From assembly GCA_964016885.1 (NCBI GenBank), contig OZ024742.1, positions 365,552,001 through 365,616,000 on the forward strand: a stretch of DNA of 64,000 bases. Reading direction: 5' to 3'. Origin of the DNA: Eledone cirrhosa. Its lineage: Eukaryota. Every line of letters begins with the position of its first letter. Position 1 is the stretch's first letter. The notes below the pieces were generated by a model. The model worked only from the letters and a program-made list of their open reading frames with translations, was not told where the DNA came from and searched no databases. A program made the translations under genes and the position numbers. Below, one piece after another: positions 56,825 through 59,874 of this stretch.

Positions 56825-57184
56825 AAACTCAAAATTAGACATTTAGTTTTCCAACGTGATCGCGCCAAAATTAGATTTAAAAATGGCTAAGAATCGCAAT
56901 GTGGCTGTGGTCAAGCTAGAAAGAATGTGATTGGTTGCTTACGGCAGGTAGGTTTGTTGCTAGAAAGCGCAGCCAAATGTCGCTAAGTTGTATCTCAACC
57001 TAACGGGAGATTATTAAATATAAAGGTTTACATATACATAAAGTTATAGATATATATGTTGCAACCGGTATATATATATATATATATATATATATATATA
57101 TATATATATATATATATATATACATACGAACGAGTAGGACCCCGACGGCTGAGCTCAAGCCGTTTCGACGGCTAATTCTGGACT

Positions 57185-59874
57185 ATGCTAGCAAATATTA
57201 ACAACGAGGCATACAAGGTGGTGAAGAATCTCAAGATAGACGATAGAACCGAGCCGCTTATACCCGCAACCCCCACCTTTAACATGAAGGACCATAAGGT
57301 AAATGTTGACTCTAACCCTAAGATTAGACTTATATGCCCTTCTAAATCAGACATAGGAAAAATTAGTAAACATATACTTGACAGGGTAATAACTCAATTG
57401 AGAAAGAAAATAAAAATTAGATTATGGGGCAACACTAGCGAAGCAATTCGCTGGTTTAATAACGTTAAGAACAAGAATAAATCTAAGTTTATACAATTTG
57501 ACATAGACGAATACTACTCTTCAATCACACCCAGCACTTTACATAAGGCCCTATCGTTTGCTAAAGTCAACTCCGACCTAACGGAGGATGAAATTAATAT
57601 TATTCTAGAGGCTAGAAAAACTATTATCAAGTTTGATGACTGCTACTGGGAACGTAAGGACAGACCCACAAACTTCGACATTACCATGGGTTCCAACAAC
57701 TCAGCGGAGGTCACCGATCTTGTGGGAATTTACATAGCCCACATACTACATGATAAATTTAGTAATCTACAGGGGTGGGGGAATATATAGAGATGACGGG
57801 CTCTTATTAGTTAATAACTTAAATAACCAAAATCTTGAAAGGCTACGGAAAAACATTAGAAAAAATAACGTACGAATACAATCTTAAAGTAGTAAATTTT
57901 CTAGACGAAACTCTTAATTTAAATACCGGACTGATACGACCCTCCCACAAGAAAAATGAGAACCTTACCTATATCAATTTTAACTCAAACCACCCACTTT
58001 CCATGATCAAATCGGTTCCCCGTAGTATTTCTCTTAGAATATCTCGCCTATCGTCTGACTCTGAGATTTTTAGTGAACATGCTGAATACTATAATAATGC
58101 ATTAAGGAATGCTGACCACCGGGATACAATAGAATACATTGATAATAATCTCCATAACACACATAGCTCTACACGAAATCAAAGAATACGTAACCGGGGG
58201 ACTGAAATACAAGCGCACACACGTAGTACCACCAGACATACTAATAATAGAAAATCATCACCAAATAAATCACGTTGTAGAAAGTATATCTGGTATAATC
58301 CCATTTTTAATGCTTCGATTAGTACAAAACTATCTCTTTCATTCTTTAAGTTAATCAACAAGCATTTCCCTAGTTCCCATAAATACAGTAAAATTCTGAA
58401 CTCTAAAACTATTAAACTATCATACTCCACGGCACCAAACCTTGAAGCATACATAAAAAACTTAACTTAAAGCAATTAAACAACACTACAAAACAAAATA
58501 TTTTAATAACAGATGAGCATAACGTAATATCGGCCTCCCAACCACTAAATGGGAGACCGGTATTATACAACCCACCTGTACTGCTATCACAACCTATCCA
58601 TGGTGTACCCGCTACCCACAACAAAAACTGTAACTGCCACCTACCTGAAAGATGTCCATTGAAGAATGAATGCCTAAAGTCCAACATTGTTTACCAATGC
58701 ACTGTTGAATCGAACGACCAGAAATGGTATTATATCGGATCTACCACTACCTCCTTTAAATCACGCTGGTACCGTCATCGATTCTCAATTAAACATCCTG
58801 ATCACCGTTTTGTGACCACGCTCGCCAACAAGACCTGGCAACTCCGTGAACGCAACCAACAGTTCACCTTGAAATGGGATATACTTTCCAGCGCTAGTGC
58901 ATATCGGAGTGGATTGAAGTACTGTAGGTTATGTAACCTTGAACTCTTTTACATCTTAAAATCCAAAAATAAATTACTAAATGATAGAATCGAACGATCA
59001 TTATACTGCAACCACAAACTGAAGGCTAAATTCTCTCACTATAAAATAACTTAACATTCGAACCCATAACTATAACATTACTTTCTAGCTAACCACTTTC
59101 TCTTCCCCCACACTACAAGACAATACCCTGCTTATCACTATAAATGGAAACTTAGTGCAATTTATAGATTACTACTATGAACTCAATGTACACCCACCCC
59201 ATAGCTTTCGTCTGTCCCCTCTCTATTTCTCCCTCTCTATGTATTCCACTCTCTCTCTCTCTCTCGCCCTAGGTCCACCTCCCTCCCTCTCCACATCTAT
59301 GAACCTGCCCTCTGTGGCAATAAATAATTCCAACGTTGACTATCAACGCGCGCTTAAGGTGTTCGCTTTAAGAGTAACCAGTATAATAAAACTCCTACCT
59401 CAACATTTTGATTAAGATATCTACAAACCACTCTCTCCCATTTCTCCAAGCCCTGCATATCTCTCTCTCTCTCCCTCCCTCTCCCCTTCTTTTCTCTCTT
59501 CCTTTTCTACTCTATCTTCCCCAATAACCTCACTTAAGGGTATTTACATTGTACATGTTAACCATTCTGCTCTGATGATACAGTGGTCACAGCATTTGAT
59601 AATTGAGTTTTGCAAATAGTTATAAATTTGCACATAGCATAACTAGGCTGTATAACCACCGTGGAAACATTTGTAAGCACACAGAATAAATTACCTTTTT
59701 ATGATGTCTACCTGTTATTATTCATTCTTTATCTGCACTCCGGAATACAGAAGGATCAGGAACTAAGTTTCTTCAACAATTCTTCCATAACTCGTTGAGT
59801 AACCTCTCACCATACGTTAACTCTATCCAGTGTAGTAATTAACCATTACTGCATCCAGGATAATCCTATACGTA
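57185..59874 (+). mobile_element. Naiad-like Penelope retroelement 2, 5'-truncated and frameshifted
   Basis: NPKIRLICPSKSDIGKISK, FIQFDIDEYYSSI, FDITMGSNNSAEVTDLVG, YRDDG, SNHP, IVYQC..YIGST, CRLC..CNH; 3' UTR ends in a long (TA)n. Confidence 0.9.
59568..59679 (+). ncRNA. Hammerhead with stem II of about 85 nt (Naiad 2 3' UTR)
   Basis: TGCT-CTGATGA-TACAGTGGT...ACCACCGTG-GAAA-CATTTG-TA-AGCA. Confidence 0.8.

Follow-up and report, generated by a model that had tools for sequence, protein, structure and literature searches.

An inverted arm of a second hammerhead family caps a truncated Hydra-clade Penelope-like element in a (TA)n array of Eledone cirrhosa

Insertions of Penelope-like elements (PLEs) are described as bearing an inverted pLTR and, optionally, a 'tail' (PMC3846280, PMC11167929, PMC8557442). 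The window analysed here, a 64-kb stretch of Eledone cirrhosa DNA (assembly GCA_964016885.1, contig OZ024742.1, positions 365,552,001 to 365,616,000), holds insertions of the same kind, placed head-to-head with one extended end and two RT starts, but with tails of 38-285 nt in simple cases, unlike those described (30-40). For Penelope-13_HM, a 5′-truncated inverted copy at the 5′ end is given in PMC8557442, a source that calls these transposition-cycle features of PLEs undefined. That inverted copy belongs to the same element, whereas the inverted arm found at 57 kb in our window belongs to another family. Fold-back on one antisense template, as set out in PMC3846280, cannot yield an arm of another family as seen at 57 kb. 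In vitro work showed nicking and extension of both strands by a PLE protein that starts at two sites inside the RNA and is predicted to act as a dimer (PMC11167929).

Comparable events are described for L1, with nine two-transcript insertions, some of them inverted (PMC11702581). They resemble what we propose here, namely that both ends of a break were extended from different RNAs and then joined; the L1 cases, however, were rare, non-canonical and from cultured human cells, whereas here a PLE is concerned, in an assembled animal genome and with the two-armed form as the usual one. Family A, to which the arm at 57 kb belongs, recalls the non-LTR retrozymes (10.64898/2026.07.22.740005), small repeats that are non-coding, bear a type I hammerhead and are proposed to be driven by PLEs in trans, but its copies in the window are truncated hairpins with half a hammerhead and not tandem monomers. 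Double insertions of transposable elements, two elements adjoining at a preferred target (PMC5932611), offer a further likeness; the junctions described there keep target sequence, unlike the joint at 57 kb, which has none. Inverted arms with an optional tail in PLEs and inverted two-transcript insertions in L1 are already known; what would be new is the pairing of two families in a PLE, since a search mostly at the level of titles and abstract openings returned no report of mixed-family inverted PLE arms (the supplements of 10.64898/2026.07.22.740005 could list some).

The composite at 57123-59874 is a real structure made of two families, one of which had been mislabelled in a sequence-only reading of the same DNA. 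Its layout within 57069-60088 is the following:

57069..57126, unstranded: left (TA)n target array (TRF, 29 TA copies)
57123..57185, minus strand: family A short arm, 48/51 identical to 51999-52049
57185..57199, unstranded: TA-free junction zone, which partly fits both a continuing family A arm and the reading frame of Hydra
57186..59054, plus strand: Hydra-clade ORF, 5′-truncated and frameshifted (RT, then linker, then GIY-YIG endonuclease)
58629..58655, plus strand: CxCX5C linker, diagnostic of the Hydra clade (motif census; definition in PMC8557442)
59055..59874, plus strand: Hydra 3′ UTR with its own hammerhead motif (motif scan, homology to the Hydra-clade element at 18-21 kb)
59875..60088, unstranded: right (TA)n target array (TRF)

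An inverted family A arm between the left (TA)n and a truncated PLE ORF had been claimed on the strength of a 47-mer that we place at 57138-57184, and the claim holds. The identity given above refers to 57134-57184 (BLAST); a wider alignment, 57120-57184 against 51985-52049, is 87.7% identical (BLAST, E 6e-19), and the local score of the arm against family A is 87, with a maximum of 21 in 300 shuffles. The arm contains GAAA, stem III, GUC and the 3′ strand of stem I, which make up the 3′ half of a motif like the type I hammerhead (half-motif scan); its 3′ end lies at the left TA, with 17 nt between stem I and TA.

The arm is also foreign to the sequence of the body, as had been stated for its 3′ UTR. 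Neither it nor the long form of family A matched 57186-59874 significantly on either strand (64-279 of 300 shuffles equalled the score), two short motifs of the upstream continuation of family A are absent from that interval, and a comparison for 3′ sequence common to family A and this Hydra family gave no match above shuffles. Within 57123-59874 we found no self-inverted match of at least 20 nt and no TA array, only a single 6-nt ATATAT. The three other ORF-bearing PLEs of the window (18244-21065, 21083-23341 and 35031-39095) do carry self-derived inverted arms, again in agreement with the sequence-only reading. Family A as the Hydra element's own pLTR or tail was rejected, there being no match above shuffles and TA following 59871. 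The left neighbour at 56466-57068 was rejected as the Hydra element's own arm (15 of 300 shuffles equalled its score); it is a single minus-strand hammerhead arm (motif at 56748-56824) that abuts target TA and has no other copy in the window.

The label that did not survive is 'Naiad'. A C-terminal GIY-YIG without CCHH, the CxCX5C linker, CxxC and CxH, a hammerhead motif of its own and the (TA)n target make the body, as judged from its translation and motifs, a Hydra-clade element. According to PMC8557442, Naiad has its GIY-YIG endonuclease N-terminal to the RT, with CCHH in the endonuclease and no canonical hammerhead, while Hydra-clade PLEs (e.g. Hydra-1_Obim) have the C-terminal GIY-YIG lacking CCHH, the CxCX5C linker, CxxC and CxH; they measure less than 3 kb, insert in (TA)n and bear a type I hammerhead in their 3′ UTR, and the element at 57 kb resembles them in all these respects. 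Its canonical hammerhead motif and its (TA)n target are laid out like those in the supplement table of PMC8557442. The hammerhead differs from that of Hydra-1_Obim, which makes the element at 57 kb a member of another family.

The Hydra ORF is spread over three frames (57176-57790, 57823-58470 and 58446-59054) and truncated at about residue 148-153 of about 705, as placed by 15 homologues that are 37-43% identical. Truncation removed the N-terminal motifs RWK and DKT, which are found in five (RWK) and 13 (DKT/DKS) of the 15 homologues; the RT follows, by eye, the Hydra rows in the supplement of PMC8557442. GIY-YIG comes after the RT at about 58704-58826 (Pfam GIY-YIG in the last frame, E 8e-4, below the cut-off), and its core has one cysteine and no CCHH (translation, by eye). 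CxCX5C, present in seven of the 15 homologues, is in the last frame, as are CxxC and CxH near the C-terminus. Our own motif scan found a complete type I hammerhead motif with a long stem II at 59567-59680; Rfam gave no hammerhead match for 59480-59800 or, among the matches listed, for the window, and single-strand folds of the arms and of the Hydra hammerhead were not better than shuffles (z -0.3 to 1.1).

At its 3′ end the body is homologous to the related Hydra-clade element at 18-21 kb (score 113, against a maximum of 90 in 200 shuffles). It ends 199 nt past the predicted cleavage site, the relative doing so at 53 and 338 nt, and its last 140 nt or so lie beyond the counterpart of that relative's short start. 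This extension, together with a roughly fourfold fall of the summed depth in the last bin (107,502 to 28,864 in run X2), which may in part be an edge or divergence effect, and with TA continuing behind 59871 in six X3 contigs, suggests that the 3′ end is probably the long form. The relative itself (18244-21065) is 67% identical to the element at 57 kb and has a self-derived arm with a tail of 285 nt, a nested small palindrome (18878-18939) and a 106-nt duplication (19522-19731).

An inner end of the arm exactly at 57184 needs correction: family A similarity reaches 57191 in part (five of seven positions of 57185-57191 match the 33-kb arm) and protein matches to Hydra start at 57188-57200, so the joint can be placed only within 57185-57199, where the two parts perhaps meet with imperfect homology. 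Other family A copies run past 57185 into non-Hydra sequence (76 and 86 contigs, one contig and 705 reads), and the arm is therefore truncated, not complete; the sequences past 57185 agree at 0.43-0.52, the single contig excepted. For the same reason, we rejected the idea that the arm stops at 57184 because of a stem loop or a natural end of the RNA. A pile of read ends at 57177 was rejected as an RT stop as well, run X5 being a restriction library with pile-ups at 57177 and 59162 on AATT.

Sequencing runs X1, X2, X3 and X5 were mapped on 57125-59872 only, flanks excluded; four of seven runs contain 0.12-0.39 of the words. At 14 of the 40 difference rows listed (405 in all) the base of the window was never seen in X2 or X3, so that the mapped runs do not seem to contain this copy and represent its families only. 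None of the 24 pieces listed out of 20,583 bridges 57185, and no family A-like loose end of the Hydra body is found among the rows listed (657 further rows exist). Unusual bases, about three in 60 nt of the arm and no more than a few percent of the body, are not numerous enough to tell which part is older.

Family A has six copies in the window: four self-paired, one lone long 3′ end and the arm at 57 kb. Apart from this arm, they are:

51993..52181, unstranded: reference family A insertion, short inverted arm and long body, TA on both sides
61312..61464, unstranded: family A insertion, long body and short arm
46960..47138, unstranded: family A insertion, short arm with internal deletion and long body, in the TA that ends a mariner-like element
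33281..33447, unstranded: family A insertion, long body and short arm, outer end without TA
1296..1373, plus strand: single long-form family A 3′ end, TA on both sides

Window copies that reach far enough hold the 3′ half of the hammerhead-like motif, and none is in tandem. Two 3′ starts can be told apart, one 97-99 nt past stem I (four long arms) and one at 17 and 19 nt (two short arms); the arm at 57 kb, at 17 nt, falls in the short-start class. Nine arms were scored for this distance, the 33-kb arm without TA and the 47-kb arm with the deletion giving no number. Runs X2, X3 and X5 likewise show (TA)n beside the short-start site in their loose-end consensus. Inner stops equivalent to 57178-57191 occur in six of the eight arms of the four self-paired copies (read from alignments), and one X3 contig has its joint at 57184. 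Family A is plainly much more abundant than this Hydra family; the summed depth, which is not a copy number, is 1.7-1.8 million in the arm's bin against 1,176-124,147 in the body (X2, X3). Its six copies share the 64 kb with 50 TA arrays. Exact-pattern scans for family A returned 0 loci in metagenome, genome and viral contigs. The element at 46045-46960, which we take to be mariner-like from its translated ORF, has 115-nt inverted ends, and its right-hand TA contains one of the family A hairpins.

Within the window, 22 two-armed-looking stretches were chosen by hand. A self-inverted match is present in 20 and lacking in two, the 57-kb composite and 25421-26581, which puts mixed-pair candidates at 2/22 (95% interval 1-29%). 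Of the 20 self-paired insertions, 17 combine a flush end (<=7 nt) with an end overhanging by at least 38 nt, and tandem units are included in the overhang of six of these 17. A long Hydra body with a short family A arm fits this usual short-plus-long layout. The other stretch without a self-inverted match may be a second mixed head-to-head pair, as a weaker candidate:

25421..26581, unstranded: second candidate mixed pair, a family L arm (minus strand, 25421-26161) and a family I-like hammerhead arm (plus strand, from 26413)

Its joint lies near 26161, both arms look short, and the middle part (26162-26412, about 250 nt) matches neither family L nor family I above shuffles. Single arms flanked by TA on either side number ten in our list, one of them of short form (family I, 28535-29343); where the inner end of an arm meets DNA that we did not recognise (near 17957, 7414 and 23671), the arm was left out of the classification. 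At 47154-47683, 50 nt of TA separate two different hammerhead arms placed head-to-head, the expected look of sequential insertion.

As the best single explanation we favour one insertion event with two RNA templates, and give it about an even chance; that the composite arose in one insertion event of whatever route, we consider fairly likely. These grades, and those below, are judgements and were not calculated. The two termini, their orientation and the TA-free joint are observed; timing, primers and enzyme would have been as follows. A PLE endonuclease would have opened a (TA)n array by cutting its two strands. The right DNA end would have primed reverse transcription on a Hydra-family RNA from its far 3′ terminus, now seen beside the right array, and the cDNA would have reached 2.7 kb and stopped in RT coding sequence, where the body is truncated. 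The left DNA end would have primed on a separate family A RNA at its TA-like internal start, 17 nt beyond the cleavage site of the hammerhead; this cDNA would have stopped about 60 nt on, inside the ribozyme, at positions that lie in the usual stop zone of family A. The two cDNA ends would then have been joined with little or imperfect homology. The head-to-head PLE 'hairpins' usual in the window could be products of the same reaction on two RNAs of one family.

That two RNAs were copied in one event was already the proposal of the sequence-only reading, and it gains from the short 3′ start, the inner end in the truncation zone and the TA-free junction. The foreign arm, the long-form body, the flush/overhang layout of 17 of the 20 self-paired insertions and the possible second mixed pair argue for two templates as well, as do the two-strand extension by a PLE protein in vitro and the inverted two-transcript insertions of L1. 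Against this, the argument comes from a single locus and rivals remain; family A and TA arrays are so dense in the window that chance neighbours should be common, and the same inner end is expected of a hairpin broken at its tip. The lone short arm at 28535-29343 means that 'short means paired' is not strict, and the arm ending at 33447, which lost its TA, says the same of 'TA always kept'. In the second mixed pair 250 nt could be given to neither family and the arms both seem short, and the 22 candidates were hand-picked.

A later deletion, which we hold to be improbable, is the first rival. A family A hairpin and a Hydra element would have been neighbours in one TA array, and a break at the hairpin tip would have been repaired with loss of the long arm, the TA and the Hydra 5′ end. 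Hairpins are fragile in general, family A is dense, insertions in TA follow one another along the locus and the arm ends where a hairpin centre would fall; nor is the Hydra copy young, given its frameshifts and the bases never seen in X2 or X3. Fragility of hairpins is mentioned in PMC5932611 too. Yet two independent insertions, correctly ordered and oriented, would be required, together with a deletion of which one end falls within some 15 nt, and 20 self-paired hairpins survive in the same window.

Somewhat less probable still is one event by another route, either twin priming on a read-through RNA with family A upstream of a Hydra source copy or a jump of the RT off the Hydra RNA onto an antisense family A arm transcribed at a hairpin locus. 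The family A sequence is not in the Hydra 3′ end (no match above shuffles, TA behind 59871 in the six X3 contigs), and no Hydra source copy with family A upstream was seen. Twin priming on one RNA is nevertheless the standard model of L1 inversion (PMC11702581), antisense templates are proposed for the head-to-head repeats of PLEs (PMC3846280), and template jumps are indicated by tandem units inside several inserts (for example 25421-26161 and 24283-25186). A jump onto an antisense arm would not necessarily give the short start with the usual inner stop, unless an existing hairpin arm had been copied.

We give slightly less weight again to sequential insertion, by which a single-armed Hydra element and a single short family A arm would have arrived at different times, the second removing the intervening TA. 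Single arms are common (the ten above, with the short one at 28535), L1 5′-truncated insertions with target-site deletions are described in PMC11702581, and the end at 33447 shows TA loss to be possible. The loss would have to be complete here, however, and the sole single-armed family A copy of the window (1296-1373) is of the long form; all ten single arms keep TA at the 5′ joint, but they were selected by that feature, which makes the argument circular. An assembly or chimeric-read artefact joining two repeats is very improbable: the absence of a bridging record among the pieces listed says little when the mapped runs seem to lack this copy, the joint has no long common sequence that could cause a mis-join, and on either side the composite ends in TA with a proper terminus of the family concerned.

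Returning to the two-template reading, mobilisation of family A in trans by the Hydra RT, which had been suggested with a Naiad RT, is possible but less likely than not: no common sequence is detectable, and family A is far more abundant and self-paired in four of its five other copies. More tentatively than for the locus itself, and at somewhat less than an even chance, we speculate that head-to-head PLE insertions normally derive from two RNAs, one primed at its far 3′ end and the other at an internal start, that some 5-10% would be mixed-family, and that abundant non-coding hammerhead RNAs such as family A would ride along as the second arm.

One-RNA and two-RNA routes to the inverted repeats of PLEs, indistinguishable in same-family hairpins, can be told apart in mixed pairs. 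The 57-kb locus alone proves nothing, but suggests that PLEs can copy two RNAs into the two sides of one break. Its value is mainly that of a pointer to a genome-wide count of mixed pairs: with about 20 two-armed insertions per 64 kb, the genome should hold enough for counting them directly, which would put the two-RNA model to the test and reveal the autonomous and non-coding families that work together.

The window is rich in related insertions. Between 4434 and 61464 our own scan found at least 21 whole type I hammerhead motifs, many with a long stem II and none detected by Rfam among the matches listed; they belong to a dozen small PLE-like families, forming short-arm/long-arm hairpins in (TA)n. 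The PLE at 35031-39095 is nearly full-length on the minus strand, with a 568-aa frame covering RT and GIY-YIG and an 863-nt inverted arm. At 48378-48721, a 55-nt palindrome starts with a hammerhead core on each strand and is followed by a different hammerhead (48520-48574). Inserts of family F at 11870-12950 and 30055-30830 contain short internal (TA)n and partial tandem units, and may seed later insertions. The minus-strand hammerhead arm at 60084-60887 has a core seemingly split by a 640-nt insert (about 60204-60842), the ends of which we take to be Helitron-like. Tandem arrays were found at 13868-15377 (period 35 nt), 42315-44029 (78 nt) and 50427-50852 (34 nt).
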